Positions 2,943 to 64,000 of a stretch of DNA of 64,000 nucleotides are shown in pieces. Below the pieces are notes generated by a model, which saw only the letters and a program-made list of their open reading frames with translations, was not told the DNA's origin and did no database searches. The translations under genes and the position numbers were made by a program. Position 1 is the stretch's first letter, and the number at the start of each line of letters is the position of its first letter. Source of the DNA: a candidate division WWE3 bacterium (GTDB taxonomy: Bacteria > Patescibacteriota > WWE3 > UBA101185 > UBA10185); assembly GCA_014729135.1 (NCBI GenBank), contig WJKK01000001.1, positions 455,599 through 519,598 of the forward strand, read 5' to 3'.

Positions 2943-4535
2943 ATGAAAGTTGCCATAGCCTATCCCCCAATAGAAACCAACAAGGGAGTCCCTCTACTAT
3001 CGCAAAACCGCCAGTTTCAATACTTTAATACACCCACCTACATCTATCCCATGGTTCCGGCATATGCAGCTTCCTTGGCACAAAAGCGTGGTCATGAAGT
3101 CATTTGGATGGATGGGATAGCTTCAGAGCAAACTTATGCTCAATGGCTAGAGCAGCTGGATCAAGAAAGTCCCGATGTTTTAGTTATTGAATCTAAGGCC
3201 CCTGTTATTCGAAAGCATTGGGAAATCATCAAAGAAGTTAAGCAAAAGCATCCCAAGATGATAACGATTTTGGTGGGCGATCATGTTACCTATGATCCTA
3301 AAGAGAGCATGGAAAATAGTGTTGTAGATATGATTATTAGAGGAGGGGATTTTGATTTTGTTTTGGCGGATTTATTGGATGCTATTTCTAGTCAAAATAA
3401 AGAGGCAAAGATCCCGGGAGGAGTATGGCTTCGAAAAGACAAATCATTTTTAGAAATTCCCAAGGAGCAAGGCAACTATGACGGCGAATTTTGGATTTCC
3501 GGGCCAATGGAAATGCACCACAACCTTGATAGTTTACCTTTTATTGATCGCGATCTAACTCAATGGAAGCTTTATGCCTATGAAAACGGTAATTTTAAGT
3601 ACAAACCGGGAACTTATGTTTATTCAGGACGTGATTGCTGGTGGGGAAAGTGCACTTTTTGTATTTGGAATCACAGCCTGTTTCCTCAAGGAACTTATCG
3701 GCACTTTTCTCCTCATCGCCTCTTTGATGAAGTTAAGCACCTGGTAGATAACTACAGAGTTCGCGAAATTTTCGATGATGCTGGCACTATGTTTGTGGGA
3801 GAGGATCTTAAGACCTTTTGCCGCCTGCTGATAGATTCCGGTTATAACAAAAAAGTGGTTTACAGCTGTAACATGCGTCTTAAAGCGCTGGACCAAGAGA
3901 CTTATGATCTAATGGGGGACGCAAACTTCCGCTATATTTTGTACGGTTTTGAATCAGGAAATCAGGAGACTTTGGATCGTATTGATAAGGGTCTGCAGGT
4001 AGAGGAAATTGAACAGGGTCTTCGAATGGCTAAAAATGCAGGTTTAGAGCCCCACATTACTATTATGGTAGGGTATCCGTGGGAAACGGAGGAGATGGCC
4101 CGTAACACTATTAATCTGGCTAAGGAGATGTTTAAAAAAGGTCTTGTAGACACAATGCAGGCAACAATCACGGTTCCTTATCCGGGAACTCCTTTGTACA
4201 AGGAGTGTGTGGAAAAGGATCTTTTGTTGGTGGATCCAAAGGATTATGAGAAGTTTGACATGCGGGGTCCTGTTATGAAGGTGCCTTTTGACGAGTCAAA
4301 GCTGCATGATTTAACGCAGGAGCTTTATACGGTTTTTATGACGCCAAAGTTTATTTTGCGAAAGGTTATGTCGATTCGTTCTTGGGATGATATTGCGTTT
4401 TTTATTATGGCAGGGCGAAAGTTAATGGGTCATTTGTTGGATTTTGATCGCAGCCAGGAAGAGGCTGTTAAAGATCACGCCGGTTTATGGAAAAAGGGCC
4501 TACGAAAGCTAATGGGGAAAAAGCAAAAAGCTTAA
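2943..4535 (+). CDS. B12-binding-domain radical SAM protein
   Basis: N-terminal Rossmann-like B12-binding-type region, then a radical-SAM cysteine triad 'DCWWGKCTFC' (Cx4Cx2C). The ~530 aa size matches this family. Confidence 0.8.
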   Translation: MKVAIAYPPIETNKGVPLLSQNRQFQYFNTPTYIYPMVPAYAASLAQKRGHEVIWMDGIASEQTYAQWLEQLDQESPDVLVIESKAPVIRKHWEIIKEVKQKHPKMITILVGDHVTYDPKESMENSVVDMIIRGGDFDFVLADLLDAISSQNKEAKIPGGVWLRKDKSFLEIPKEQGNYDGEFWISGPMEMHHNLDSLPFIDRDLTQWKLYAYENGNFKYKPGTYVYSGRDCWWGKCTFCIWNHSLFPQGTYRHFSPHRLFDEVKHLVDNYRVREIFDDAGTMFVGEDLKTFCRLLIDSGYNKKVVYSCNMRLKALDQETYDLMGDANFRYILYGFESGNQETLDRIDKGLQVEEIEQGLRMAKNAGLEPHITIMVGYPWETEEMARNTINLAKEMFKKGLVDTMQATITVPYPGTPLYKECVEKDLLLVDPKDYEKFDMRGPVMKVPFDESKLHDLTQELYTVFMTPKFILRKVMSIRSWDDIAFFIMAGRKLMGHLLDFDRSQEEAVKDHAGLWKKGLRKLMGKKQKA

Positions 4536-6015: not shown

Positions 6016-7119
6016 ATGCGGGTTCTTTCTTTTATGAACTCCTATTCTTATGGCCTTTCCGGTAGTGATGTAGTTTTAATTCGCATAGCTCCGCAAGTTT
6101 TTAAGGATTTTAATCAAACTGTTATAACTTCAAGAATGGGGCGTCTTGTTTGTGAGAAAAATGATTTTACTCCAAATTTCATAGTTACAACCAAGGAAGA
6201 AAGGTTTAAAAGTATAATTTGGACTTATATTAAGAGGATTTTTCTTGCTTCCTTGAGCGTACTAAGGGAGCCTATTCCTAATATTTGTTTTGCTTCGTCT
6301 GATTTTTTGCCGGATGTTTTTCCCTGCTTTCTGCTCAAACTTAAAAATCCCGATACTTTATGGGTGCAGCACATTTATCATTCTATACCTAGGCAACGCG
6401 TAATTCCTTTTTTAGCTCAAAGAATAAGCTTTATTCTAATTCGTTTTCTAGCAGATAAAGTGGTTGTGGATAATAAAATTTTAAAGCAGGATCTTATTGA
6501 AATGGGTTTTAAGCCCTCCAGATTATATTTAAATTATCCGGGATTGGATTTTGAGAAGTTTGAAAATTTACCGGAACCCAAGAAAGAATATACCGCTTCT
6601 TTTATTGCCCAATTAAGGCGCTCTAAAGGTGTTTTAGATTTGCCGGAGATTTGGGCTCATGTTGTTAAAGACTTTCCCGATGCAAATTTAGCTATTATTG
6701 GAAGTGGTACTAAGGAACTTCTTGAGGAATTAAAACAAAGGATTCTATTTTTAGATTTGCAGGAGAATATAGATGTTTTAGGGTTCTTGCCTAATAAAGA
6801 GGCCTTTTCCATTATTAAGGATTCGGATGTTTTTGTCTTTCCCAGTTATGAGGAGGGTTTTGGGTTAGCTCCTTTAGAAGCACAGGCGTGTGGTACTCCG
6901 GTGGTGGCTCGGGATCTTCCGGTTTATGAGGAGATTTTCCCGGAGGGTATGGTTAAGGCTTCTTTGGGTGATTATAGGGGTTTTTGGCAGGCGGTTCTTG
7001 AGGTTCTGGTAGATCCAAGACTAGCTGATGATTTAGTTGAAGCATGTCATGTGAACTCCGCACTTTTTAGCTGGTCTAAAACCATTTCTCGAGAGAAGGA
7101 AATATTAGAACTGGCTTGA
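6016..7119 (+). CDS. GT4 (group-1) glycosyltransferase
   Basis: C-terminal 'FVFPSYEEGFGLAPLEAQACGTPVVARDLPVYEEI' (EX7E-type motif). Confidence 0.8.
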   Translation: MRVLSFMNSYSYGLSGSDVVLIRIAPQVFKDFNQTVITSRMGRLVCEKNDFTPNFIVTTKEERFKSIIWTYIKRIFLASLSVLREPIPNICFASSDFLPDVFPCFLLKLKNPDTLWVQHIYHSIPRQRVIPFLAQRISFILIRFLADKVVVDNKILKQDLIEMGFKPSRLYLNYPGLDFEKFENLPEPKKEYTASFIAQLRRSKGVLDLPEIWAHVVKDFPDANLAIIGSGTKELLEELKQRILFLDLQENIDVLGFLPNKEAFSIIKDSDVFVFPSYEEGFGLAPLEAQACGTPVVARDLPVYEEIFPEGMVKASLGDYRGFWQAVLEVLVDPRLADDLVEACHVNSALFSWSKTISREKEILELA

Positions 7120-9881: not shown

Positions 9882-10809
9882 TGGTTCAACTACCATAATT
9901 GAAACTCTAAAAAGTTTGGAGTCTCATATAGGTTTGGTTGATGAGGTCTTTATTATGGAAAATGGATCTACTGATAACTCTCTGCAGCTTGTCCAAGATT
10001 ATGTGGATAGGAGTACCCACGGAAAGTATGTTCTATTCTCTACCTCCACTTCGCTTGGATTGTCTGGGGCATACAACAAGGGTATAGAAATGTCATCTGG
10101 TGATTTAATCATTACTCTTCATCAGGATGTCCTCCTAAAGGATTATGCAGTAGCCTCTTTGTTAGAACCTTTTTTTTCTGCAGAGAAAGGCGTTGTAGCT
10201 ACAAGTCATTGTGTTGAACATCCTAGCTTTGTATGGCGTGCATATCCTTTTTGGCAGAGATGCTTGTTCTCACGGCTTCTTGGCAAGACTTACTGTGGTT
10301 TGGACGGGAAGTTTGACTGTTTTTCCAGGGCTGCCCTTTATGAGGTGGGATTGTTTGATTCATTAAGGTTTAGGACTGCAGGTGAGGACGGGGATATAAG
10401 AAAGCGTTTATTAAAGAAAGGTAGAATTTCAAAAACGGAAAGCTTGATAATTCATTTACATGCCGTATCTGATAAATTCTCCATTTGGGATTACTTTTAC
10501 AAACATATGCAGTATAGTGAAGCCCAGGGTGTGCTTTTAAGGAAACACGGTATTGATAGCATCCAGAATTTTCTAAAGTCTTTTTTCAGAGAAGTTCTAG
10601 CTGTAGGTGTTCTTTTTCCCTATGTGCGCCTCATTTTTCTCCCTTTAACTCTTTTTTACGCTATTTGGTATTGTAAGAACAGCATTATTCACTGTGATAA
10701 AGAAGACCTCGCTAAATTACTTCTGATAGTTCCTGTAAATGTAGTGTTATTGTACGTCAGTTTTTTTTGTTCGCTAAAGGGATTTTTGTTAAAGAGACAG
10801 CGATTTTAG
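9850..10809 (+). CDS. GT2 glycosyltransferase (module A, paralog of 19190-20149)
   Basis: Probable start at ATG 9850 ('MTISVVIPLHNG'), inside the 3' end of the MTase gene. The track ORF starts at 9775. 'CVEHPSFVWRAYPFWQRCLFSRLLGKTYCGLDGKFD' is conserved with its paralog. Confidence 0.75.
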   Translation: MTISVVIPLHNGSTTIIETLKSLESHIGLVDEVFIMENGSTDNSLQLVQDYVDRSTHGKYVLFSTSTSLGLSGAYNKGIEMSSGDLIITLHQDVLLKDYAVASLLEPFFSAEKGVVATSHCVEHPSFVWRAYPFWQRCLFSRLLGKTYCGLDGKFDCFSRAALYEVGLFDSLRFRTAGEDGDIRKRLLKKGRISKTESLIIHLHAVSDKFSIWDYFYKHMQYSEAQGVLLRKHGIDSIQNFLKSFFREVLAVGVLFPYVRLIFLPLTLFYAIWYCKNSIIHCDKEDLAKLLLIVPVNVVLLYVSFFCSLKGFLLKRQRF

Positions 10810-10880
10810 TCACTATGTTGCTTGCATAGTTGGCCAGGACTTTGAAACGCTCTTAAAGAATTTTTATTTGATTTTTATCA

Positions 10881-20774: not shown

Positions 20775-20861
20775 CATCTTTATTAGGGTATATTTACCTG
20801 TTATACTCTGCTTGTTTTTAAGATATTGAAAATCTAAGGAGATGGAAGGAGGGTGAGTGAG

Positions 20862-21662
20862 ATGGATAAGCGAGAAATTGGAGTTACGAGTATGGCGTTT
20901 TTCCCCTGGGTTTTACTACCGGGGGGACTGTTACTGGTAAATAGGTGGTCGCGAAAAGCCGGCTATGATTTTTTGCAGCCGGTTCCCTCTCGCGGGATTT
21001 TTCCATTTGTATTGCGAAGGATCCCCGCGGATCGAATTCCCCACACCCAGGGTTCGTGGCACCCGCGTCCGGGCCGTCCTCTTATGGCAGTTGCGCGGCA
21101 GTTTGGGTTGGTGGGGGACGAGTGGCCCTTGCCCGAAGATTGGATAGTCTTTGCCTCCGCGCGGCTGGTTGAGTGTCGCCTAAAACTTTTTCAGAGGAAC
21201 TTTCCGGATGTTCGTCGTGTAGGCCACAGCTGGGGAGACCCCCTTTTGGAGGTGAATCCCGACCTATTGACTTCCGCAGGGGAGCAGCCTGCTCTCGGTG
21301 ATCTTCTGGACTATCCGGGAGATCTAGTGATTGATCTCTGGCATGTTCGAAGAGAAGGTTGGCAGGGACAAGCTCCCTTGACCTCCGAACCCGTGGAGTT
21401 TTTTCAACAACTCCTATTTTCGGGTAAAGTAGTCCTTGTCCATTTTCAACCAGCGCGAGATGGTGCAGAGCTGGGAAGGTTTCTCCGGGGGGAACCAACG
21501 GTTTTGGATGAATTACTAGCTCTCCTACGTTTGTACCCGCGGATTCCTCTAGTGGTGGAGCTGGCTCCGCCCTCCACTGCGCCTGCCTCCTGGATGTTCC
21601 CCAGGTCGGCAATTCAGGGCCTGATTCAGGTCCGTCAGCGCATAGAAGAGGTCCTAACCTAG
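20862..21662 (+). CDS. hypothetical protein encoded on a GC-rich island (no recognisable domain)
   Basis: 266-269 aa ORF (GTG 20853 or ATG 20862), preceded by GGAGATGGAAGGAGGG. Local GC is ~58-62% against ~40% flanks. Pro/Arg/Ala/Gly-rich codon usage. A strong terminator follows. Confidence 0.55.
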   Translation: MDKREIGVTSMAFFPWVLLPGGLLLVNRWSRKAGYDFLQPVPSRGIFPFVLRRIPADRIPHTQGSWHPRPGRPLMAVARQFGLVGDEWPLPEDWIVFASARLVECRLKLFQRNFPDVRRVGHSWGDPLLEVNPDLLTSAGEQPALGDLLDYPGDLVIDLWHVRREGWQGQAPLTSEPVEFFQQLLFSGKVVLVHFQPARDGAELGRFLRGEPTVLDELLALLRLYPRIPLVVELAPPSTAPASWMFPRSAIQGLIQVRQRIEEVLT

Positions 21663-21669
21663 ATTAACC

Positions 21670-21718
21670 CGGATCTCGGGAGACAGCGTAACAGCTCCCG
21701 AGATCCTGCTTTTTGCTA
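21670..21718 (+). terminator. rho-independent terminator: GGATCTCGGGAG-(12-nt loop)-CTCCCGAGATCC + TGCTTTTTGC
   Basis: Perfect 12-bp inverted repeat followed by a T-run, 8 nt after the stop of the GC-rich ORF. Confidence 0.65.
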
Positions 21719-21729
21719 AAATACCCCTA

Positions 21730-23220
21730 ATGAGAGCCATCCTAAAAAAACACCCCTTCCTTACAATCGTAATCTCAGCCACACTTGTATACTTTTTCTC
21801 CTGGTTTTTTGCATGGAAAATTGGCGTTAACGACTTACCTATTCAATCCGAAGACACTTTACCCGCCATTTTTATGCCCGTTACAATCCTAAAAGAAGGC
21901 ACAATTTACCTTGACTCCTATTACGACATGCTTCTTTCGCGCTATCCTCACCCTGATGATAAGAGTTATGAAAAGGGGTTAGTTCCTTTTTATTTGCGGG
22001 AAGTGATTTCAGATTCACGGAATGACACACACTACGTCTCTGCATTTACTATAATAACGCCTCTGCTGGCTTTGCCGGTTTATTTTCTTCCGGTTCTTTT
22101 GGGAGTTTCTATAAATTGGACAAACTTGATTGTCCTTTCTCATTTAGCAGCTTCCTTCATTGTTGCTTTATCCGGTGGGTTTCTCTATTTGCTTTTAAGG
22201 AAGCACTTTTTTTCTCAAGATTCCGGCAAAACCTTTTTTAAACAAAAATCTCTATTGCTTACTGCAATTTATTTATTTGCAACCATAAATTTTGCGCACA
22301 TTTCTCAAGCTCTTTGGCAACACGGGACAGTTCAACTTTTTACGATTTTGGCTCTTTGGGCAATTTACGAAAAACGCTACCCTCTCACCGGACTCTTTTT
22401 TGGCTTAATGATCCTTTCTCGCCCCACCTCCGCCATCCCTGTCACCCTTCTTGGTTTAGCAGCCCTGACGAATTTGTTCAATACTTCTCCCTCTTCACAG
22501 GTTGAAGCCTCAGAAAGGAAAACTGAGAACACCTCTTTTAAGCGAACTTTTGCAGACCGCTATTGCGGTCGAAACGTGAGTCTAAAAGATGGTGTTCTCA
22601 GTTTAATTGCGCTTTCTTTAGGTTTCTTGCCTACCTTAATCTTCTTCCTCTGGTACAACAAAACCTACTACGGCAACATCTCCAATCAAGGCTACTCCAA
22701 CCAAATCTTCACCGAATGGAAAGGACGCTTCCCTGAAGGCTTCCTAGGCCTTTGGATCTCCCCATCAAAAGGAATCCTAATTTACTCACCAATCTTTATC
22801 TTTTCTCTTGCCGGCCTCTATTTAGCCGTCAAAAACCGGAAACAAAACTTAAACTGCATAATCCTTGGCTTAATCGTCTTAATTCACACACTTGTCCTTG
22901 GAAAATGGAAGCACTGGTATGGGGGATGGTCCTTTGGCTATCGCATGGCCTCCGATGTAATTCCCTTTTTAATCTTACTAATGGTCCCCTTTATAAAATC
23001 CTCCCATTTTCAAAAAGCAAAAAACTTATTTTTCATACTTTTTGGCCTTTCAATTTTTGTCCAATTCTTTGGAATAGTCTTTTACGATGGAACTTGGCAT
23101 TCTGCTTATGATCTGGGATATGAAAACACCTCTTGGCTTTGGTCCTTAAAAAATAGCGAACTAATCTTCAACATTCGTAGAGTACTTGTAAAAACAGGCT
23201 TACGCGCCACACCTTTTTAG
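21730..23220 (+). CDS. polytopic membrane protein (496 aa; possible GT-C/mannosyltransferase-like)
   Basis: About 12 predicted TM helices with a large loop. No soluble domain. Confidence 0.55.
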   Translation: MRAILKKHPFLTIVISATLVYFFSWFFAWKIGVNDLPIQSEDTLPAIFMPVTILKEGTIYLDSYYDMLLSRYPHPDDKSYEKGLVPFYLREVISDSRNDTHYVSAFTIITPLLALPVYFLPVLLGVSINWTNLIVLSHLAASFIVALSGGFLYLLLRKHFFSQDSGKTFFKQKSLLLTAIYLFATINFAHISQALWQHGTVQLFTILALWAIYEKRYPLTGLFFGLMILSRPTSAIPVTLLGLAALTNLFNTSPSSQVEASERKTENTSFKRTFADRYCGRNVSLKDGVLSLIALSLGFLPTLIFFLWYNKTYYGNISNQGYSNQIFTEWKGRFPEGFLGLWISPSKGILIYSPIFIFSLAGLYLAVKNRKQNLNCIILGLIVLIHTLVLGKWKHWYGGWSFGYRMASDVIPFLILLMVPFIKSSHFQKAKNLFFILFGLSIFVQFFGIVFYDGTWHSAYDLGYENTSWLWSLKNSELIFNIRRVLVKTGLRATPF

Positions 23221-28244: not shown

Positions 28245-31139
28245 ATGAGTTTGGAAATGGTTTTTGCAATTTTAATATTTGTTACTTCGTTGATTCTGAT
28301 TGTTTGGGACAAGAAACTTTCTATTTATATTTTGCTGATTCTATCTGTTCTTTTGCATAAAGAGCTTTTTAGCATTTATCGATGGAATCTGCTGCCGGTG
28401 CGAATTTTCATGTTCGCCTTTTTAGTATGGGCGGTTTACGAATTTACAAACTGGCTTTTTTACAATCGCAACTTTAAGGTGCTGTGGAATTACTTAAGAA
28501 AGCCTTTTATTGTGCTTTTAACAAGTATGTGGCTAATTCGCGGAGTCTCCATTATTTTCACTAAAAATCTATTTAGCAGTGTTACGCTTTTTGGCTTTTT
28601 TACTACAATGGTGGCTTTGGGTGTCTTTTTATATTTTCAACTAAAAGATAAGCCCGAGGAGGTTTTGGATTATCTTAAATTTTATATTCATGTGGTTTTT
28701 GCGCTTTGTTTATTTGCCTATTTACAGGCCTTTTTATATTTGCGCTATGAAATTATTATTGGGGCTTTATGGAATATTCCGGGAAAGTTCCCGCGTTTGG
28801 GGGCAATCTTTTGGGATGTAAATCATTTTGGAGGTTTGTTAGCTGCCTTGTTGCCTGTCTTAGGAGTTTTTATTCTTATTGCTAAATCCTGGAAAAAGCG
28901 TATTTGGTATTCATTTATGTTTTTGTCTATGACAGGTGTTTTGTTCTTGACTAACTCGCGCACTTCCTGGATTTTAGGCTTTGTAGCTTTTGTGGTGTTT
29001 TTAGGAATTCTTTTGTTTAGGCGTTTTGGAACAAAAGGTATTTTAGCTATTATGGCTGTTTTGATGTTAATTTCCTCCTTGGTTTTTGCTGAATACATGG
29101 ATAAGGATAGCCCCTTTCGCAAGCGCGTAAAGGATTTTTTCCACTATCGCATTGATTCTTTTGCTTCTCATATGATGCTTTTGGAGGGTTCTTATGAAAT
29201 TTTTGAGGAATATCCTGTTTTAGGTGGTGGTTATGGCGGCTTTTTTGAACACTTCTCTAAGACGGATGTAGCAGCTCGTTATTTCGGGAGGGACCCCGCT
29301 GCTCTTAACACCCGTGTTCCTGCGCATACAATTTGGGGAGAGGCTATTGCAGAAACCGGAGTCTTAGGCCTTGTATCTTTCGTCTTATTTGTAGGGTTGA
29401 TTTTAACTACGCTTTTATATCTTGCTTTAAATGGAGCTTCAACTGATTCGGTTTTAATTTCAGCAGCTATGTTTTCCGCTGTTCTGGGATGGTTGGTAGC
29501 CGGGACTTTTTATTCTTACAACAGTGAATTTTTCTTTATTGTTTTGTTTTTGTACTTCATTTATGCCGTTTCTGTTCTAGGAGAGGATTATGACGTTAAT
29601 CGCATCCTAGGCTTTTTTGGAAAGTTGGGTAAATTGCCTTTTCTTCTAGTGGGTGTCTCAAGCATTGTTTTAATCTTGTTTAGTTTAGGTAAAAACCATC
29701 TTATCCCTTGGGATGAGGCAATTTATGCCGGTATTGCCAAAAACATGGTTAAAAGTGGAGAGTATTTGATTCAGCAATGGCATAATCTTGATGTTTGGTA
29801 CGAGAAACCTCCTTTGTATATGTGGTTAATGGCAGGATTAATGCGTGTTTTTGGATTTTCTTCTTTGGCTGCACGTTTGCCCTCCGCTTTGTTTGGAGTG
29901 GGTATTGTTTTATCGGTGTATGCTTTTGCTAAGAAGTACTTTGGTAAGGTGGTTGGATTTTTTGCCTCTTTGGTGCTTTTAACAACTGTTCACTTTTTGT
30001 ATTACTCTCGCGCAGCAATGCTGGATGTTACTACGACTTTTTTTATTTCTGTTTCTCTGTTTTTATATTTTTCTGCTCGGAGTCGCTTGCTTTCTGTCGA
30101 AGGTTTAAAAGGCTTGTTAAAAGACATGGGCACTGTTTCGAGCTCTGACAAAAAGCTTAAAGCGCAATTTCCTTTCCGCTGGATTTTTTCCGGAGCTTTT
30201 GTAGGTTTAGCAGTTATGACCAAGGGAGTTGTGGGCTTTCTACCCCTGCCCGTTATGGCGTTGTATGAGCTTTACCTGTTAATTACTAAGCAATCCAATT
30301 TAAGTTGGAAACTTGTTTCTCGTTATGCATTCTTATTTGTAGCTGCTTGCCTAGTATTTTTACCCTGGCATGTTTACATGTATTTCCGCTTTGGCCCCGC
30401 CTTTATACAAAATTACATCGGTTATCACGTTTTAGATCGGGCTATGACCGCTATAGAGGATAAGGGGCGTCCTTTTTGGTGGTATACGGTCGTTTTAAAG
30501 GTAAGTATGCGCATCTGGTTTTTAGTGCTTATTCCGGCTTTGGTTTTTGCTGTTGTACGTGTTTTTAGACGTGATAACCGCATTGTATTTTTAAGCCTCT
30601 GGGCAGTTTTTGTATTTTTGTTTTTCTCTGCAGCCAAATCCAAATTGATCTGGTACATTATGCCTTTGTATCCTGCTTTGGCTTTATTAATTGGAGCCTT
30701 TGTTAAGCAGGCCTTAGATTTTATTTTTTCATTTTCCTTAAAACTTGATACTCCTTTGAATAGATTTCTGGTTTACTTTTTTATTGCTGTAGGAGCTGTT
30801 TTTTACCTGTTTTTAAATAAGGAATTGGTTTATACTTCTGACTTAACAGAGGAGCAGGCGCGTTTGCTGATGTTAAAGGATGAGGTTTATGGAGTGGATG
30901 CTAAGGTTTATGCAGATCGTATAGAGCTGCCTTTAGTTTTGTATTATACGGAGGGTCCCTTTGAGATTGTTGATTTTGGGCCTTTAAAGAGGACTCTAGA
31001 AAGTGCTCCTCTGAATGTAGAGATAGTTTTTATTACCAAGGAGAGTCGTTTTCGCGCTTTTAAAGAGATTCATCCATCTTTAAGGCTGGATATGCAAATT
31101 AACGAATGGGTTTTAGGTTCTCTTCCCGCTAGTCGCTAA
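28245..31139 (+). CDS. 964-aa fusion: O-antigen-ligase/Wzy_C-like polytopic domain + GT39/GT83 (ArnT/PMT)-like GT-C domain
   Basis: The N-terminal half carries 'FLTNSRTSWILGF' and many TM helices. The second half starts with 'IPWDEAIYAGIAKNMVKSGEYLIQQWHNLDVWYEKPPLYMWLMA' (ArnT/PMT first-loop motif), followed by further TM helices. Confidence 0.65.
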   Translation: MSLEMVFAILIFVTSLILIVWDKKLSIYILLILSVLLHKELFSIYRWNLLPVRIFMFAFLVWAVYEFTNWLFYNRNFKVLWNYLRKPFIVLLTSMWLIRGVSIIFTKNLFSSVTLFGFFTTMVALGVFLYFQLKDKPEEVLDYLKFYIHVVFALCLFAYLQAFLYLRYEIIIGALWNIPGKFPRLGAIFWDVNHFGGLLAALLPVLGVFILIAKSWKKRIWYSFMFLSMTGVLFLTNSRTSWILGFVAFVVFLGILLFRRFGTKGILAIMAVLMLISSLVFAEYMDKDSPFRKRVKDFFHYRIDSFASHMMLLEGSYEIFEEYPVLGGGYGGFFEHFSKTDVAARYFGRDPAALNTRVPAHTIWGEAIAETGVLGLVSFVLFVGLILTTLLYLALNGASTDSVLISAAMFSAVLGWLVAGTFYSYNSEFFFIVLFLYFIYAVSVLGEDYDVNRILGFFGKLGKLPFLLVGVSSIVLILFSLGKNHLIPWDEAIYAGIAKNMVKSGEYLIQQWHNLDVWYEKPPLYMWLMAGLMRVFGFSSLAARLPSALFGVGIVLSVYAFAKKYFGKVVGFFASLVLLTTVHFLYYSRAAMLDVTTTFFISVSLFLYFSARSRLLSVEGLKGLLKDMGTVSSSDKKLKAQFPFRWIFSGAFVGLAVMTKGVVGFLPLPVMALYELYLLITKQSNLSWKLVSRYAFLFVAACLVFLPWHVYMYFRFGPAFIQNYIGYHVLDRAMTAIEDKGRPFWWYTVVLKVSMRIWFLVLIPALVFAVVRVFRRDNRIVFLSLWAVFVFLFFSAAKSKLIWYIMPLYPALALLIGAFVKQALDFIFSFSLKLDTPLNRFLVYFFIAVGAVFYLFLNKELVYTSDLTEEQARLLMLKDEVYGVDAKVYADRIELPLVLYYTEGPFEIVDFGPLKRTLESAPLNVEIVFITKESRFRAFKEIHPSLRLDMQINEWVLGSLPASR

Positions 31140-31145
31140 CACTTA

Positions 31146-31170
31146 AGGATGATCCTTCATCCTTTCTTTC
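31146..31170 (+). terminator. hairpin GGATGA-tcct-TCATCC + TTTCTTTC after the 964-aa gene. Further AAGGAT/ATCCTT inverted repeats lie up to 31290, giving a convergent terminator region.
   Basis: Inverted repeats read directly from the sequence between two convergent genes. Confidence 0.4.
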
Positions 31171-31276
31171 AGAACATTATCACTAAGCTCAAACCGTACT
31201 TTTTAGCAAGGATTATCTTTGTGTCCGAAGGCACTCATCCTTGTTATCGTGGGTTTTGCTGAGGTTGTTTGAAGGA

Positions 31277-32488
31277 TTATCCTTGGATTTTTGGAAGGGT
31301 TTTTAAGGGAGATTCGTTTTTAGCAAATATAAACACAGCTGTTCCCAGGACAGCAACAATTGAGGCTAAAAGCTGTGCCAAAGCCAGCCCTCTTAATTGC
31401 ATTCCAGGTACCAGAAGTAACACACTTAAAATAAAGGTTCCCAGTTTTAACCCGTTAATCGCCAAAATTTTTCCCGTACTTTCCTCAATAAAAAAATAGT
31501 TTTCCATAAAGGAGGCTACAGCTGCTAAAGCTCCTGCAAAAACCAGAATATTTAAAAGATCCAAAGACGCCTCAAATTGGGGTCCAAAAAAATTCGCAAT
31601 AACAAATTTTGACCCAATAACTCCTAAAACGCCCATAACTAAAAGCAGCATGGCAAGTAACGCTGCCTCATCAAAACTATACTTAAGCTCTTGCTTTTTA
31701 CGCTTTGCATTTTTAGGAAGTAGAACCGAAAAGATTGAAAGTGACAGCAAAGCAAAAACTACCGAAACCTTGTTAGCCAATGCAAAAACTCCCACATCTG
31801 AAAACCCCTGAATTATTTTAGCTATAGCATTTGAAAGAGGTGACCATATTTCCGTAATTGTTTGCGACACTCCCGCAGGCCATGCCTCCAGTAAAAGTTT
31901 CCACGTAGATTTATCAATTTTTAGATTTAATTTTTTCAAGGGATTGTCTTTAAGGACAAGCAAAGCGCCTCCAAAAATAGAAAGCCCAAAAATTGCTGTT
32001 GTTAAAGGAACTGTTGGATTTACAATTCCAAAATAAAACAAGGGAGCTGCTAAGGCTTTTATTAAAGCGGGAAGTGTATACAAGAGAACAAGATAAGTGT
32101 ATTTTTCTTCCTTTTGGTAGAAGGCATATAAGGTGTAGTTAAGCGCATAAGCTAGGACACTTCCCAAGAAGATTAGTATTAAAGCCATGGTTGCCAGTTC
32201 AAGAACGTGCAAGGCGGTAACTCCCAAAATGATTGCCCCTATAAAAAGGGGGATTTTGGCAGGAACAAAGGCTTTCTTTTTAGACGGGTTTAGAATGGAG
32301 CCGGCAACAAAAGTGGAGTTGGTTCCAAAGTCGGTTAAGCGCCCTATGACAACGGTTAAGCTAATAAAAAGTGAGTATTTTCCAAAGTCTTCAACCGGAA
32401 GTGAGTTGGCAACTGCCCAAAGATAAATGAAACCGAGAAGGGCGTTAAACATGTTGCCTACAGCAACAAAGGATATCTTTTTTAACAT
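31277..32488 (-). CDS. Wzx-like polysaccharide/oligosaccharide flippase (MOP superfamily)
   Basis: 403 aa with about 12 TM helices. The N-terminus 'FVAVGNMFNALLGFIYLWAVANSLPVEDFGKYSLFISL' is typical of Wzx/PST flippases. Confidence 0.7.
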   Translation of the reverse strand: MLKKISFVAVGNMFNALLGFIYLWAVANSLPVEDFGKYSLFISLTVVIGRLTDFGTNSTFVAGSILNPSKKKAFVPAKIPLFIGAIILGVTALHVLELATMALILIFLGSVLAYALNYTLYAFYQKEEKYTYLVLLYTLPALIKALAAPLFYFGIVNPTVPLTTAIFGLSIFGGALLVLKDNPLKKLNLKIDKSTWKLLLEAWPAGVSQTITEIWSPLSNAIAKIIQGFSDVGVFALANKVSVVFALLSLSIFSVLLPKNAKRKKQELKYSFDEAALLAMLLLVMGVLGVIGSKFVIANFFGPQFEASLDLLNILVFAGALAAVASFMENYFFIEESTGKILAINGLKLGTFILSVLLLVPGMQLRGLALAQLLASIVAVLGTAVFIFAKNESPLKTLPKIQG

Positions 32489-38677: not shown

Positions 38678-38782
38678 TATTTTCTTTTGGATTACTTTTG
38701 CCACTGACCGATTTGTCTTTTTGGTTGTTTTGTAGTACTTTTCCCTCACGCAAGAGTTTTATAGGCTTCTAAAGGAGGTGAG

Positions 38783-39109
38783 ATGTACATGCCTAAGCAA
38801 CTGTCGTTTGTGCGCCCGTTCCGTGTCCGTTCTGGTGCAATAGGTGATCAGCTTTGGGAAATCCTGTATGAACTTGGTGTTCAGGATGGTGACGCAACCT
38901 TTACTGACCCCGAGGTTGAATTCGTGAGTAACCTACACGCCAACACGGCTCCCGGTGCTGAAATAGTCCTTATTACGGTGGCGGAACTATGGGAGGAGGC
39001 CTATCTTTTTCGCCGCAAAGTGGACTACCTCTATCGTGTTGATGTTGAGGGTCGCAAGCTAGCACTTCTTAAACGTCAGCTCCTTCGTATCCTTACTCAA
39101 CGCGATTAA
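38783..39109 (+). CDS. hypothetical 108-aa protein on a locally GC-richer segment
   Basis: Strong SD (AAAGGAGGTGAG-ATG). ~50% GC against ~40% surroundings. No recognisable domain. Confidence 0.45.
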   Translation: MYMPKQLSFVRPFRVRSGAIGDQLWEILYELGVQDGDATFTDPEVEFVSNLHANTAPGAEIVLITVAELWEEAYLFRRKVDYLYRVDVEGRKLALLKRQLLRILTQRD

Positions 39110-39352
39110 CGTTTTTATGGGGAGGCATCTCTGCAGCGGATGTCTCCCTATCCTCTGGTTAGATTGTAAATCAAGGTAAACTTCAGATTTCATACATATT
39201 CGACCCGTATATAATGGCAAAATCCTCATCTAATAAAAAAGTGCCCGTTTTTGAGTCAGATTTGATCCCAAATTTGGAGTAAATATTCATTTCGAGCGAA
39301 GCGAAACTGAACGAAAAACGAGTACTCCGAAGACTTTCGGGTTTTTTCTGTG

Positions 39353-39381
39353 TTGACATTGGATACTCTATGGTGGAATAT
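39353..39381 (+). promoter_or_regulatory. candidate sigma70-type promoter for mraZ: TTGACA (39353-39358), 17 nt, GAATAT
   Basis: Consensus -35 with correct spacing to an A/T hexamer, ~70 nt upstream of the mraZ ATG. Preceded by a weak hairpin+U6 (39327-39347). Confidence 0.35.
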
Positions 39382-39452
39382 AGATACAGATTGGTGATCA
39401 ATGGTGAAAAAGGACAGTCCTTTAAGAGGACTGTCCCTCCAGAAAAACGGGT

Positions 39453-42968: not shown

Positions 42969-43034
42969 CAAAAATTCTAGTTAAACTAGAATATTCCCCC
43001 TTGAAGTGTTTATTTGTGTTGCTATATTTAGTGT

Positions 43035-43403
43035 GTGGGTGTTTTAAGTTTAAAGTCAGGTGCTCAAGCGGAAAAAATTGCTGTTAAGTATCTGCAAAAA
43101 CTTGATTACGAAATTATAGATACAAACTGGAAGTGTAAGTGTGGCGAGATTGATATTGTTGCTTCTAAGGATTTTCAGCAGATTGTGTTTTTTGAGGTTA
43201 AGTATCGAAAGGATGCTCGTTTTGGTTATCCGGTGGAGTTTATTTCTGCCTCTAAGTTGGCTAAGTTGCGAAAGGCTATCGAGGTGTTTTTGCTTATGCA
43301 TGCTCCTGCTGACATTTCCTGGAGGCTTGATGGTTTGTGCCTTATGCCCAGGGAGGGTAAGTTGCGCCTTCGCTGGTATGAGTGTTTGTTCTCAGATATC
43401 TAA
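43035..43403 (+). CDS. YraN-family (UPF0102) endonuclease-fold protein
   Basis: 'GEIDIVA...FFEVKYRKD' core. GTG start. Confidence 0.7.
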   Translation: MGVLSLKSGAQAEKIAVKYLQKLDYEIIDTNWKCKCGEIDIVASKDFQQIVFFEVKYRKDARFGYPVEFISASKLAKLRKAIEVFLLMHAPADISWRLDGLCLMPREGKLRLRWYECLFSDI

Positions 43404-43416
43404 TATCAATATTTGT

Positions 43417-43555
43417 TGGAGAGATCTCGCTACTTCCTTACGTTTCGCCCGCACATATTTTTATAAATAAATGGACAGGCTGTGTTCATGGTAAATTTGC
43501 CCTTATATATTGGTTTTCGTGCGGGCTGCAAAAGTGCGTCAGTAGGAGATCTCTC
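43417..43555. repeat. 139-bp element bounded by 16-bp imperfect terminal inverted repeats (GGAGAGATCTCgCTACT ... AGTAGGAGATCTCTCC), with an inner 8-bp stem (GCCCGCAC/GTGCGGGC) and a ~64-nt AT-rich core
   Basis: Inverted repeats read directly from the sequence. Lies between the convergent yraN and LCP genes. Confidence 0.5.
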
Positions 43556-43563
43556 CACAAAGA

Positions 43564-44667
43564 TTAATTTGAAAGTATTACTAAATTTGGTTCTGTGGTT
43601 TTGCTAGTTGCCTGAGTTGTATCTTCCCCGGCGGGCCCAGCAGCTTCTTCCACAGGGAAAAGCATTTCCTGAATATCCTCATGCAAACTTGCAAAATCCG
43701 GCTCCCGTGGGATAAAAACCCACGCATGATACTCACTATTAGGATAAAGACCCGGATGATAAACATACTTCCCATCAACAACAAAGGAAACCACCTTGTA
43801 ATCCTCCCGATCCTTGTAAAAATCCCACAAATAGCGCACATCCTCCAATTTAAGCGTTGTGTACATCCGCTGAGCTGCCGTAACTGCCTTATAAAATTTC
43901 TCAATATCCATCGGCCAAAAATCACTTGCCGGTTGACTAACTCCCTCTACCATGCCTGCCAAAATTCTATGTTGTCTTTTAGCACGCATTAAATCACTAC
44001 CCTCACCATTAGTACCCTTACGGGAACGTGCAAAATCCAAAGCCCTCCAACCATCCATAACCTCACGACCCGCCTCAAAACTTACCGGCTTTAACCCCGT
44101 ATCCGTGTTATTTGGAAAGTGCGTATCTGTAAAACTTCGTTCAACCTCAACAGGAACACCTCCAAATGAGTCTACAATCCAACGGAAATCTTCAAAGTCG
44201 CAGCGAATATAACCATCCACCTCCAAACCGGTAACCTGCTCAAACGCATCAATTAAAGTTTCAGGACCCTTAACCGAATATAAAGCGTTAATCTTATTAC
44301 TATTTACCCAAAGATCCCGCGGTACTGAAGTTAAAAGCATAACATTATCCTCTGGATTTAAACTGGCAAGAATCATGACGTCGGTGTTATAAGTTGTAGC
44401 TGCTTTACTTCTGCGGTCTATGCCCAAAAGAAGCACATTAATAACATCTTTATTTGCAAGTTCGGACTTAGGTTTTTCTGCCTCTTTTGAGGCTAAATCT
44501 CCAAAACCAATGCCTCCGGAATTTTCATCTTCAGTACCTTCCTCCAAAGAACTTTTTGCCAAATTCTCCTCCTCCTGCCGAATAAAACGAGGCCTTAAAC
44601 CTAAAAAGATTCCTGTAGCAATTGCCCCTGTAACAACCGCTAATTGTATAAACAGTTTTTTGTTCAC
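43564..44667 (-). CDS. LytR-CpsA-Psr (LCP) family cell-wall glycopolymer ligase
   Basis: N-terminal TM helix, then 'INVLLLGIDRRSKAATTYNTDVMILASLNPEDNVMLLTSVPRDLWV'. Confidence 0.85.
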   Translation of the reverse strand: MNKKLFIQLAVVTGAIATGIFLGLRPRFIRQEEENLAKSSLEEGTEDENSGGIGFGDLASKEAEKPKSELANKDVINVLLLGIDRRSKAATTYNTDVMILASLNPEDNVMLLTSVPRDLWVNSNKINALYSVKGPETLIDAFEQVTGLEVDGYIRCDFEDFRWIVDSFGGVPVEVERSFTDTHFPNNTDTGLKPVSFEAGREVMDGWRALDFARSRKGTNGEGSDLMRAKRQHRILAGMVEGVSQPASDFWPMDIEKFYKAVTAAQRMYTTLKLEDVRYLWDFYKDREDYKVVSFVVDGKYVYHPGLYPNSEYHAWVFIPREPDFASLHEDIQEMLFPVEEAAGPAGEDTTQATSKTTEPNLVILSN

Positions 44668-51939: not shown

Positions 51940-52055
51940 ATCTCAATTACGACTATTGCTGTTTATCTGGATATATTTTTTATGACTTGCATAAACTTAT
52001 CTTGGATTTTAGTATTGGTGTATATCAAATTATTTAGTAAAGGAAAGGGCAAATC

Positions 52056-53166
52056 ATGTTGAAGGATCCTAGAAATACAAATTTAGCTAAGGTGTTAGTT
52101 GAGCATTCCCTAGAGGTTGGTAAAGGTGATAATGTAGTTATTTCTACTTCCGATCTTTCCACCGGGTTGTTGGGTATTAAAGTATGATTCTGATGATTTT
52201 GGGGACAAAATTTTTGTACGAAGTAATGGGACTAAGGTTTATACTGCAAAAGATACCGCTTATCATCTTTGGAAGTTTGGCCTTTTGGGTAAGGACTTTT
52301 TATATAAATTATGGGATTCTGAATCCTTGACTCAGCCGACTTATCGGACTTCCCTGGAAGGTAAATCTTTCGATTCCTTCGGTAGTGCGGATATCATTGT
52401 TAACTTGATCGATGAACGTCAAACATATCCTCAAGAGATGGTTAAGCATGCCCTACATAGTTTGGGTTATGCAGAAGAGGCTGCGGAATATAATCACATA
52501 GCGTATGGAGTTGTTTCACTTTCAAAGGATACCGCGGAAGCTCTCGGAGTGGAAGTTTCGGATGACAAAGAAGTTTATGCTATGTCCGGTCGTAAGGGAA
52601 TCGGAGTAAAGGTTACCGATTTACTTGATTTATTGTGTAAGGAAATTTCGCAAATCCAGAGGAAATCCGGAGTTGATTTAACAGATCCAGATCTTGCCTC
52701 CTCTCAAGAGATAGCATTGGCAGCTATAAAGCACTATATGCTAAAAAATAATCCCTACACACCTATCTTGTTTGATTACAAGCAGGCGCTGAAATTAGTG
52801 GGGAATACAGGTCCTTACCTTCAGTATTCTCATGCACGTGCTTGCAGTATCTTAAAGAAATTTGAGCCCTTTGACACTAGTTGTACTAAGGGAGCGGAAC
52901 TTGCCTCAACTGAAGAGGCATTGTTAAAAGATTTGGAAAGTTGGCCTTTTATAGTAGGTCGTGTCTTGGAGGACTTCAACTTAGCCATTTTGTCGGAGTA
53001 TGCCTTTACTTTAGCGCAATCTTTCCACACGTTTTATGAGCATAACAATGTCTCTCAGTCAGAAGGTTCTGTTAAAAATTTTCGTCTAACCTTGATTCTG
53101 GCTTTTACTAAAGTTATGCAAGAGGTTTTGCAGGTTATGGGTATTTCTGCTCCTAAAAGGATGTAG
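52056..53166 (+). pseudogene. argS: chimeric gene remnant. The first ~29 codons (ATG 52056) look like an M29 aminopeptidase N-terminus and are fused in frame to the middle of arginine--tRNA ligase. A +1 frameshift (extra T at ~52258-52261) follows, then an intact 293-aa ArgRS C-terminal half. The HIGH region is absent.
   Basis: Frame 0: 'MLKDPRNTNLAKVLVEHSLEVGKGDNVVI' is AmpS/PepS-like. 'GCWVLKYDSDDFGDKIFVRSNGTKVYTAKDTA' is the ArgRS 'GALWFDL..FGD..V.RKSDGT.TY.TRDIAYH' block. Frame +1: 'YHLWKFG...', 'AMSGRKGIGVKVTDLLDL' and the DALR anticodon-binding 'GPYLQYSHARACSILKKF'. Only 340 nt separate the enolase stop from this block, so about 280 N-terminal ArgRS codons are missing. Confidence 0.6.
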
Positions 53167-61753: not shown

Positions 61754-61790
61754 GGGCTGGGTTTTTTGTCCCCCTAGTTTTTTTGTGAGT
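61752..61790 (+). terminator. hairpin CTAGGGG-(loop ctgggttttttgt)-CCCCTAG, followed by a T-run
   Basis: Inverted repeat directly after the stop of the 313-aa gene. The uvrA -10-like TATAAT at 61816 follows. Confidence 0.45.
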
Positions 61791-61831
61791 ATGTTTGCAA
61801 ACCCGAAGAAATACCGTATAATTTTGACTTG

Positions 61832-64000
61832 ATGTCGTCTAAAAATCTTGAAAAGCTACAAAAAAATCCTAGAAGCTCTAAAACTTTAGACAAAATAACC
61901 GTAAAAGGTGCTCGGCAGCATAACCTTAAAAACGTAAATCTGGAAATTCCTAAAAATCAATTCGTTGTTTTCACAGGAGTCTCGGGTTCGGGAAAATCTT
62001 CCTTAGCTTTAGATACTCTTTATGCAGAAGGGCAGCGTCGTTATGTTGAAAGCTTATCTTCATATGCGCGTCAGTTCTTGGGTGTCATGGACAAACCTGA
62101 TGTGGACAGCATTGAGGGGCTTTCTCCGGCAATTGCAATTGACCAAAAAACCACCTCCGCTAATCCCCGCTCCACCGTAGGAACCGTAACCGAAATATAC
62201 GACTTTTTCCGCCTTCTATTTGCACGCATTGGCCATCCTCACTGTCCTGAATGCGGCAGGGAGGTTAAACGGCAAAGTTCCGATCAGATTCTTGAGGCAG
62301 TTTTAGACACGATAAAAAGTCAACCTGAATTTTCATCGTCTAAAGGCGTGCGTTTTATGCTTTTAGCTCCTCTAGTTCAAGAGCGCAAGGGGGAATATAC
62401 AGATCTCTTCCAAAACCTGCAGAAACAGGGAATAGTTCGTGCTCGTATAGACGGCCAAATTCGTCGACTTGACTCCGATTTTACACTTCTAAAAAATAAT
62501 AAGCATACAATTGAAGCTTTAATTTCACGGCAGGTGCTGACAAAGAAAAAATATGAAAAAGAAACATCCCAAGTAGAGAGCCTCCTTTTTGGCTCTATGG
62601 AAACAGCTTTAGAATTAAGCGAAGGGCTTTTAATTTTAGCAATAGTAAAGGATGCCTCTTTTGATTTTCCCGAGAATCCTGAAAAAACGGAGGACTTTTT
62701 GTTTTCCGAAAAATTTTCCTGCCCTGTTTGTGATGTGTCTCTTCCTGAAGTAGAGCCCAGAAACTTTTCTTTTAACTCTCCCCAAGGGGCTTGTGAAGAA
62801 TGTGACGGCATTGGAAGCAAGTTGGCAATAGATCCCGATTTAATACTAAATCCAAAGCTTTCGGTTAATGAAGGTGGGATACTCCCTTGGGCAAAGCTTT
62901 CTACAGGAAATACGTGGACTTACCAGAAAATTAAGACGGTAGCCGATGCCCATGACATTTCACTGGATGAGCCTTTAGAAGACCTACCTCCTAAAAAGCT
63001 GGAAATTCTCCTTCAAGGAACCGGAAACAAAACTTACGATGTTTCTTACTTTAAAAATGGGCGTAAAAAAACTTACACAACTCGTTTTGAAGGGGTCATT
63101 CCCAATTTAACCCGCCGCTACCATGAAACAAGCTCAGACTACAGTCGGCGTCAAATTCAAAACTACATGGTTAAAGAGCCTTGTCCTGTTTGTAATGGCG
63201 CGCGTTTAAAGCAGGAGTATCTAGGCGTGACTATAGAAGGCAAAAGTATTCATGATGTTACGCAAATGCCTTTAGGTGAAACGCAACGTTGGTTAAATAA
63301 TCTTTCGCATCAAATAGAACCCACGGAAAAGGAGATAGCAGAGATTATTCTTCGTGAGGCCAATTATCGTCTGAAGTTTTTGCTGGACGTGGGTTTAGGG
63401 TATTTGAATCTGGCTCGTACAGCAGGGCATCTTTCCGGCGGAGAATCTCAAAGGATTCGTCTAGCCTCGCAAATTGGTACCGGACTTTCAGGGATTATGT
63501 ACGTGCTGGATGAGCCCTCAATTGGGCTTCATCAAAAGGACCAAGGACGCCTCATTAACACTTTAAAGCACCTTCGTAATATTGGAAATACTGTCATTGT
63601 GGTGGAGCACGACAAGGACACCATGTTAGAAAGCGATTACATTTTCGACTTTGGTCCGGGAGCCGGTGAGAACGGTGGAGAGATTGTAGCGGAAGGGACT
63701 CCACAGGAGTTGCAGCAAAACAAGAAATCTTTAACAGGTGCTTATCTGTCAGGTCGAAAAGTAGTAGGTCAGGTTGAAGTTTCAACAAAAAAGCAGAAAA
63801 CTGCAGATAATTCAGGAAAATGGCTAAATCTTAAAAAAGCTTCAGGGCGCAACTTAAAAAACATCAATCTGGAGATTCCTCTAGGAAAGTTTACTTGTAT
63901 TACAGGCGTTTCAGGCTCGGGCAAATCTACTTTAATTATGGACACGCTTTTGAAAGCAGTTAAAGAACATTTTGGGTTAAAGGTGGAAGAACGTCCTCTG
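61832..64000 (+). CDS. uvrA: excinuclease ABC subunit A (5' ~723 codons; continues beyond the window)
   Basis: 'GVSGSGKSSLALDTLYAEGQRRYVESLSSYARQFLG', zinc-finger cysteines and a second ABC signature 'LSGGESQRIRLA'. Open to the window end, so absent from the ORF track. Confidence 0.9.
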   Translation, partial: MSSKNLEKLQKNPRSSKTLDKITVKGARQHNLKNVNLEIPKNQFVVFTGVSGSGKSSLALDTLYAEGQRRYVESLSSYARQFLGVMDKPDVDSIEGLSPAIAIDQKTTSANPRSTVGTVTEIYDFFRLLFARIGHPHCPECGREVKRQSSDQILEAVLDTIKSQPEFSSSKGVRFMLLAPLVQERKGEYTDLFQNLQKQGIVRARIDGQIRRLDSDFTLLKNNKHTIEALISRQVLTKKKYEKETSQVESLLFGSMETALELSEGLLILAIVKDASFDFPENPEKTEDFLFSEKFSCPVCDVSLPEVEPRNFSFNSPQGACEECDGIGSKLAIDPDLILNPKLSVNEGGILPWAKLSTGNTWTYQKIKTVADAHDISLDEPLEDLPPKKLEILLQGTGNKTYDVSYFKNGRKKTYTTRFEGVIPNLTRRYHETSSDYSRRQIQNYMVKEPCPVCNGARLKQEYLGVTIEGKSIHDVTQMPLGETQRWLNNLSHQIEPTEKEIAEIILREANYRLKFLLDVGLGYLNLARTAGHLSGGESQRIRLASQIGTGLSGIMYVLDEPSIGLHQKDQGRLINTLKHLRNIGNTVIVVEHDKDTMLESDYIFDFGPGAGENGGEIVAEGTPQELQQNKKSLTGAYLSGRKVVGQVEVSTKKQKTADNSGKWLNLKKASGRNLKNINLEIPLGKFTCITGVSGSGKSTLIMDTLLKAVKEHFGLKVEERPL

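Follow-up and report, generated by a model that had tools for sequence, protein, structure and literature searches.

Palindromic repeats in bacteria and the yraN/LCP junction

In proteobacteria, extragenic palindromes of the REP, BIME and REPIN types are often located at 3′ ends and between convergent genes, where they stabilise mRNA 3′ ends or bar read-through without a U-tract. The genomes of the candidate phyla radiation (CPR) are small, their non-coding features are poorly annotated, and they often lack recognisable terminators; to our knowledge, they are not known for repeat families. Rickettsia palindromic elements (RPEs), which insert in frame in genes, provide a precedent for palindromic repeats that lie both in genes and between genes (PMC10969869).

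The inspection of a 64,000-nt stretch of DNA from a candidate division WWE3 bacterium (64 kb; hereafter the window) showed the 160-nt gap between the 3′ ends of two convergent genes, yraN and an LCP gene, to be occupied by a compound hairpin of ∼150 nt, named here el1. This element is real and non-random, and it is not a known RNA, a canonical terminator or a demonstrable miniature inverted-repeat transposable element (MITE). Most probably, el1 is a new, low-copy addition to the palindromic repeat elements of bacteria, a class of wide scope. The explanation preferred here, to which a probability of roughly 45% is assigned, is that el1 is a low-copy palindromic element of the RPE or REP type, related to a second hairpin in the window (el2), tolerated at the junction, and capping the tails of both mRNAs.

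RPEs resemble the WWE3 hairpins in being palindromic units of ∼100-150 bp that fold into stable hairpins, in having members both in intergenic regions and in frame in tolerated gene loops, as el1 and el2 would be if related, in having no associated transposase or clear target duplication, and in residing in a reduced-genome, host-dependent bacterium (PMC10969869). However, RPE families comprise tens of recognisably similar copies per genome, whereas the two hairpins found here in 64 kb share only a central module of ∼35 nt; further, a hairpin whose stems show compensated changes persists in the el2 orthologues, suggesting constraint rather than decay. A likeness to REPs is seen in the GTAG tetranucleotide that adjoins a palindrome in each arm of el1 (AGTAG-GAGATCTC), but REPs are ∼35 nt long, occur in hundreds of copies and come with a RAYT transposase gene, while the window contains no further copies and no Y1/RAYT protein, and GAGATCTC is too short for a REP hairpin. 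MITEs such as Correia, ERIC, RUP and SPRITE (the last a terminator-like palindromic repeat) are similar to el1 in size, terminal inverted repeats, hairpin-forming transcripts and intergenic location (PMC10969869); el1 differs from them in having no target-site duplication, no termini in common with el2 and, in the 64-kb window, no parent IS. Like an intrinsic terminator, el1 is a stable stem-loop placed directly after convergent stop codons. However, its 150 nt with ∼50 paired positions contrast with the typical stem of 5-20 bp, its apical region measures 64 nt, and a U-tract is lacking on either strand. The description of the locus in a first-pass annotation as more elaborate than an ordinary terminator holds.

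If el1 and el2 do form a family, a CPR bacterium would have a palindromic element resembling the RPEs, with one copy in frame in a conserved membrane protein, its hairpin kept across species, and a younger copy capping a convergent gene pair. This would offer a handle on transcript ends in CPR organisms, and would bear on how palindromes arise, spread or persist in reduced genomes. If the similarity between el1 and el2 is due to chance, el1 is merely a curious local palindrome of little consequence.

Structure and position of el1

The genes flanking el1 are those named in the first-pass annotation. The yraN gene (43035-43403, + strand), taken from the list of open reading frames, encodes a UPF0102/YraN protein (Pfam PF02021, E = 2.8e-24) and is the last of a string of genes, mraZ-rsmH-ftsL-PBP-yraN; its stop codon lies 9 nt before the base of el1. 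On the other side, the LCP gene (43564-44667, − strand) encodes a LytR_cpsA_psr domain (Pfam PF03816, E = 1.5e-32), and its stop codon is 3 nt from the base of el1. With 100% identity, the LCP protein corresponds to GF360_02515, encoded on an 864-kb contig (864,248 bp) of a candidate division WWE3 bacterium. According to Pfam, the window contains glycosyltransferases, envelope genes and housekeeping genes.

The structure of el1 and its place in the junction were observed directly. The left outer arm, TGGAGAGATCTC-g-CTACT (43417-43434), pairs with the right outer arm, AGTAG-GAGATCTCTCCA (43541-43557). The first 12 bp of this inverted repeat, TGGAGAGATCTC (43417-43428) and GAGATCTCTCCA (43546-43557), are 100% complementary; past a 1-nt G bulge at 43429, CTACT (43430-43434) pairs with AGTAG (43541-43545), giving 17 paired positions out of 18. 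The 8-bp palindrome GAGATCTC is contained in the left outer arm. Pairing extends outward, TTTGT (43412-43416) facing ACAAA in the 43557-43561 region, which brings the whole compound hairpin to 43412-43561. Inside the outer arms, an inner stem of 8 nt with 100% complementarity, GCCCGCAC/GTGCGGGC (43447-43454/43519-43526), encloses a core of 64 nt (43455-43518) with a G+C content of 28%. The outer arms, inner stem and A+T-rich 64-nt core proposed earlier are thus all present, although each feature lies one base to the right of the position first assigned to it. The BglII-like cores at the two ends, which had been singled out as notable, are unremarkable: AGATCT occurs 19 times in the window, with 16.9 occurrences expected.

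When the 160-nt gap was folded as RNA, minimum free energies (MFE) of -57.2 (+ strand) and -55.3 (− strand) kcal/mol were obtained, with z-scores of -6.25 and -7.65, respectively; none of 200 shuffled sequences folded as well. The element shows no strand preference, folding about equally well in either direction. Among 4257 sliding windows covering the 64 kb, el1 was one of the two most extreme outliers in GC-corrected folding. Its gap is by far the most structured of the intergenic gaps of ≤330 nt in the window; only one other such gap is significantly structured, and both are convergent junctions (el1 and the hairpin h3 described below). By chance alone, 64 kb of sequence should contain about one perfect 12-bp inverted repeat with its arms within 300 nt, and a further example is present at 30419/30569. 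The non-random character of el1 therefore follows from its nested, colinear stems rather than from the bare 12-mer arm. The + frame running through el1 is fully open, and a peptide search performed with it yielded no candidate.

Four contigs, which come from three relative assemblies, show the same gene order, response regulator-LCP><yraN-PBP; their LCP identities are 63-66%. Contigs L002 and L003 represent one relative (they carry the same P0004 protein); in them, the stop codons of LCP and yraN are 40 nt apart, while on L004 and L005 the ends of the two genes overlap. All three syntenic assemblies lack el1, as was observed directly. The element is thus an addition relative to them and particular to this lineage, whether through insertion at this junction or through repeated loss elsewhere. 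The nearest LCP homologue among 5.8 billion proteins has an identity of only 70%, so there is no truly close relative for comparison. The contig carrying this homologue (L001, JGI Ga0374083_0264923) stops 12 nt past the LCP stop codon, at the place that el1 takes up in the window. The assembly may have broken at a repeat, or the agreement may be coincidental.

A second hairpin, el2, and the module shared with el1

A sliding-window folding scan flagged a further long hairpin, el2 (22499-22633, + strand; MFE -60.8, z-score -6.5), 21 kb from el1 and likely paralogous to it; two weak blastn matches of el1 fall at its centre. It lies in frame inside a gene for a GT39/PMT_2-like membrane protein (21730-23220, 496 aa), in a variable loop of a protein that is conserved across WWE3 (364 homologues). 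In an orthologue with 69% amino-acid identity (L037), a hairpin occupies the same place, with 84% nucleotide identity over 82 nt (E = 6e-17) and an apical stem that is symmetrically shortened (GACGC-GAA-GCGTC). Across el2, third-codon-position identity is 0.73-0.83, versus 0.45 gene-wide, while amino-acid identity there is ∼0.5. Nucleotide identity this high where protein identity is low points to a nucleic-acid constraint, not a protein one, and suggests that the coding region here harbours an element at the level of RNA or DNA. A hairpin was found at the el2 site in six of the six orthologues examined, its stem sequences differing (L037, 3864-3955; L038, ∼3113-3195; L039, ∼2330-2408; L040, ∼3000-3075; L041, ∼10730-10815). 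The sense strand folds better in four of the six, the two strands being essentially equal in one and the order being reversed in L040. This conserved intragenic hairpin is arguably more interesting than el1 itself.

Upstream of the el2 gene, a 269-aa open reading frame (20853-21662) has a G+C content of 53-62%, against ∼40% for the genome, and no Pfam domain. It shows 30% identity (E = 2e-19) to an open reading frame at the same place in L037; in L038 it is missing, and the UDP-glucose dehydrogenase gene is followed directly by that of the membrane protein. It was possibly acquired horizontally. The region had been considered as a hidden structured RNA, but was rejected as such: it is a protein gene conserved in L037, it has no Rfam match, and its extreme folding energy is an effect of G+C content only.

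On its minus strand, el1 has an inner module (ACTTTTGCAG-GC stem-CGAAACGT) that resembles the central part of el2 (module at 22546-22580), a similarity that was observed directly. Written out, the minus strand of el1 is GCGCACTTTTGCAGCCCGCAC-(64 nt)-GTGCGGGCGAAACGTAAG, and el2 is GCGAACTTTTGCAGACCGC-TATT-GCGGTCGAAACGTGAG. The search patterns for the two halves of the module, each with 14 specified bases, were derived from the el1-el2 comparison: the 3′ half, GCGGGCGAAACGTAAG in el1 (43437-43452, − strand), matches GCGGNCGAAACGTNAG exactly, and the 5′ half, ACTTTTGCAGCCCGC in el1 (43521-43535, − strand), matches ACTTTTGCAGNCCGC exactly, the only other match of either pattern in the window being el2. 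Identities between the two modules are 17/19 and 14/16, and the single difference in the stem is compensated (C:G versus A:T). The two modules occupy equivalent places next to the GC stem at the apex, and their bulges follow the same pattern. The loop of el2 has 4 nt where el1 has its 64-nt core, and in covariance-model alignments this appears as a 67-nt insertion at the apical loop.

In Smith-Waterman alignments of one arm of el1 with el2, a design that avoids counting complementary arms twice, 3 of 3000 shuffled sequences scored as high as the real one; for the full-length alignment the figure was 2 of 400. The module match therefore has p ∼0.001-0.005 when only the two hairpins are compared. 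A covariance model built from el2 and its orthologues alone gave the el1 module 14.3 bits and E = 0.41 in a scan of the whole window, ranking it below one unrelated hairpin. With this value in the unbiased scan, the homology of the two members found in 64 kb (el1, intergenic, and el2, in frame) is significant in the restricted hairpin-to-hairpin comparison only. On these sequence comparisons, the two modules are quite likely to be truly homologous. The el2 that shares a genome with el1 is nearer to it in sequence than the L037 version is. Homology of the outer stems could not be demonstrated: purine/pyrimidine agreement is 16/19, with no peak at the anchored offset, and this agreement was dropped as evidence of full-length homology since it is weak and not offset-specific.

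Taken with its structure and position, these similarities would fit the following origin for el1. We infer that it is a lineage-specific copy from a small family of hairpin elements native to this WWE3 lineage, of which el2, in frame in the variable loop of the glycosyltransferase-like membrane protein gene, would be an older member sharing a common ancestor with it. A copy with the same central module (CUUUUGCAG, GC stem, CGAAACG) may have come into the harmless 3′-3′ junction of yraN and LCP, where it now would combine a long perfect outer stem with the 64-nt A+T-rich apical insert. The assembly GCA_964638225.1, the source of L002/L042 and of L037, has el2 and not el1, which makes el1 the younger or less widely kept copy. 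Being palindromic, el1 would be transcribed at the tail of both convergent mRNAs and, in either direction, would fold into a compound stem-loop of ∼50 bp; most plausibly, this blocks read-through and 3′-exonucleases, as REP and BIME do. To judge from its structure and location, el1 probably caps or insulates both transcripts at the 3′-3′ junction.

An alternative is that el1 is a palindrome formed in situ and devoid of a dedicated function, its stems having been made by template switching during replication, with inverted copying of adjacent sequence, and its resemblance to el2 being the product of chance or convergence. A single template-switching event can both generate and preserve perfect hairpins (PMC8794818); compensated stems are also present in the el2 orthologues, and el1 folds with equal ease in both directions, as expected of a palindrome at the DNA level. 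The lack of a target-site duplication, of a transposase and of another copy, and the modest E value of the module in the unbiased scan, are consistent with this origin too. However, it leaves the 64-nt non-palindromic core unexplained, and it has to attribute to coincidence a module that matches hairpin to hairpin at the p value given above, at an equivalent place and with the same bulge pattern. An in-situ origin is considered unlikely.

The first-pass annotation had also offered a small structured RNA as an alternative. In its fuller form, el1 would be a cis-acting or small RNA whose core, an internal loop plus a GC stem (CUUUUGCAG ... CGAAACG), is where a protein or RNase acting on cell-envelope mRNAs binds or cleaves, the outer helix needing only to pair. 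The module is invariant in el1, el2 and the L037 orthologue, and the stems are 100% paired, 12 of 28 pairs having changed on both sides and none on one; this count, however, is inflated, as the three sequences aligned were selected as hairpins. All three copies (el1 on its minus strand) lie in the sense orientation of a cell-envelope gene, and el2 is conserved beyond coding needs, its sense strand folding better in most orthologues. The conserved module and the nucleotide-level conservation of el2 thus lend the idea some indirect support. Against it, no Rfam family was recovered for el1 in the scan that had been proposed as a check: at the gathering score there was no match in the whole window to any family, 6S, SRP, tmRNA, RNase P and riboswitches included, and at E ≤ 10 the region 43300-43700 gave only a spurious lncRNA match. 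Further, no promoter-like site was found in or near el1, el1 has no strand preference, and relatives do without it. A structured RNA is therefore a distinctly unlikely explanation. Equally doubtful is the extended proposal that el1 and el2 define a new WWE3/Katanobacteria structured-RNA motif, a long helix whose internal loop (CUUUUGCAG/CGAAACG) does not vary and adjoins the GC stem at the apex, sense in cell-envelope mRNAs (once in a coding region, once in a 3′ UTR), which a dedicated protein or RNase would read to control the transcripts, the intragenic copy being kept by compensatory change across at least six orthologues.

Searches for further copies of el1 and mobility genes

No second full copy of el1 was found in the 64-kb window by pattern search, blastn, nhmmer or covariance models with filters off, the only hit being the partial one to el2. 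The first-pass annotation had linked uniqueness in the genome to a mere elaborate terminator; el1 has no second full copy in the window, but with a partial paralogue that shares the interior module it is, strictly, not unique. Nor did a second full copy appear among 185,579 GTDB representatives, in JGI metagenomes or IMG/VR, or among phages and plasmids, collections from which the source lineage is absent. The scans of the first three required both 11-mer ends at the right spacing, and returned 7 loci in the GTDB representatives, 24 in the JGI metagenomes and 0 in IMG/VR. The resulting 31 loci were rejected as copies of el1, since they have no similarity to its interior, and are chance matches or unrelated palindromes. 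The module pattern had no match in IMG/VR, blastn searches of phages and plasmids gave none either, and ∼75 kb of sequence from relatives contained no further family member except the el2 orthologue. A literature search for the 11-mer returned primers only.

About half of the 31 loci belong to an unrelated, widespread repeat carrying GTCGAGATGAC. This repeat has GTCGAGATGAC 5-15 nt outside a GGAGAGATCTC unit; the GTCGAGATGAC motif is absent from the flanks of el1, which is not a member of the GGAGAGATCTC...GTCGAGATGAC repeat, and the window contains 5 matches to this repeat (≤2 mismatches) versus 6.3 expected. The second motif, GTCATCTCGAC/GTCGAGATGAC, was seen 5-15 nt outside the 11-mer in loci L006, L010, L012, L014, L019-L026 and L031 (e.g. 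L026, 11046-11226), and the loci of the GGAGAGATCTC scan that carry it come from distant phyla (Nitrospiraceae, Adhaeribacter, Parvimonas, Myxococcota and metagenomes). Some consist of inverted repeats of ∼35 bp around a 115-nt non-palindromic core, with four copies in the assembly SDBV01. These GGAGAGATCTC/GTCGAGATGAC loci resemble an interspersed repeat of wide distribution, and Rfam has no match where they lie. Five other loci (L017, L018, L028, L032 and L036), on five contigs of the Ga0123352-Ga0136643 metagenome sets, form a family of ∼140-nt hairpins with almost perfect pairing and GGAGAGATCTCTGCATCCGGGC... ends, flanked by a TATATATA-GTGCGCGCAC inverted sequence and with an interior unrelated to el1. 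On the metagenome contig L026, two Acido-Lenti-1 RNA motifs (RF01687; 51.9 and 39.9 bits) lie inverted and ∼115 nt apart (6335-6380, − strand; 6494-6539, + strand).

These searches bear on the suggestion, also made in the first-pass annotation, that el1 is MITE-like. As a classical MITE it would be a non-autonomous IS derivative, mobilised in trans by a DDE transposase recognising the TGGAGAGATCTC termini. In favour are the terminal inverted repeats (12 bp perfect, 17/18 overall), with TG...CA ends, the size of 141-150 bp and the A+T-rich interior; in addition, presence or absence differs between the source genome and its relatives, and the copy number of a MITE can be as low as 1 per genome (PMC10969869). 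However, el1 has no target-site duplication: the flanking TTTGT(T) and (A)CAAAG are inverted, not direct, and extend the hairpin. No transposase, integrase, RAYT or Y1 protein was found among the open reading frames of ≥120 aa in the 64 kb, no other copy with the same termini exists in the window, and the same-end loci of the collections share nothing of the interior, IMG/VR, phages and plasmids being empty altogether. The sole relative, el2, shares the interior and not the termini, the reverse of the pattern of a MITE family. A classical MITE is therefore very unlikely.

Terminators and other structured sites in the window

A canonical bidirectional intrinsic terminator that is merely long is the least probable explanation, indeed a most improbable one: el1 does lie exactly between convergent stop codons, and another convergent junction (31140-31276) also holds a hairpin of ∼145 nt, but no T-run or U-tract follows the stem of el1 on either strand (for which reason it is not a canonical intrinsic terminator), the scanner found 0 terminator-like sites in 43000-44000, relatives do not require a structure of this kind, and the hairpin at the other junction, h3, is strand-asymmetric and followed by TTTTT, unlike el1. 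Canonical hairpin-plus-U terminators are used elsewhere in the genome, at 21671-21711 and after h3.

The hairpin h3 (31143-31286; MFE -47.8, z-score -4.1) lies in the convergent gap between a Wzy_C/PMT gene and a Polysacc_synt gene. Its two strands fold at -47.3 versus -34.5 kcal/mol, with seven G:U pairs on the + strand. Given this asymmetry and the TTTTT after the stem, h3 looks like an ordinary long terminator, unlike the symmetric el1. It has no sequence similarity to el1 or el2, and at the corresponding sites of L037 and L038 the genes either overlap by 4 nt or leave 4 nt between them, with no hairpin. Each outer arm of h3 contains a near-palindrome, AAGGATnATCCTT, the centres of the two being 127 bp apart.

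No tRNA or tmRNA was found in the window, and several other intergenic gaps were inspected. The 435-nt gap at 1434-1868 contains a G+C-rich stretch (∼57%; 1440-1560) and a perfect 16-bp hairpin followed by U-runs; its sole Rfam match is a weak one to C4 antisense RNA (19.7 bits, E = 0.43), and folding yields modest z-scores (-1.2 and -2.4). The gap probably harbours a cluster of terminators or a small RNA. Three more gaps, at 38678-39452 (775 nt), 51940-52284 (345 nt) and 61754-62376 (623 nt), have no open reading frame of ≥120 aa and no Rfam match. The last of these is the third convergent junction of the window, and contains a 25-nt palindrome at 62114-62157.
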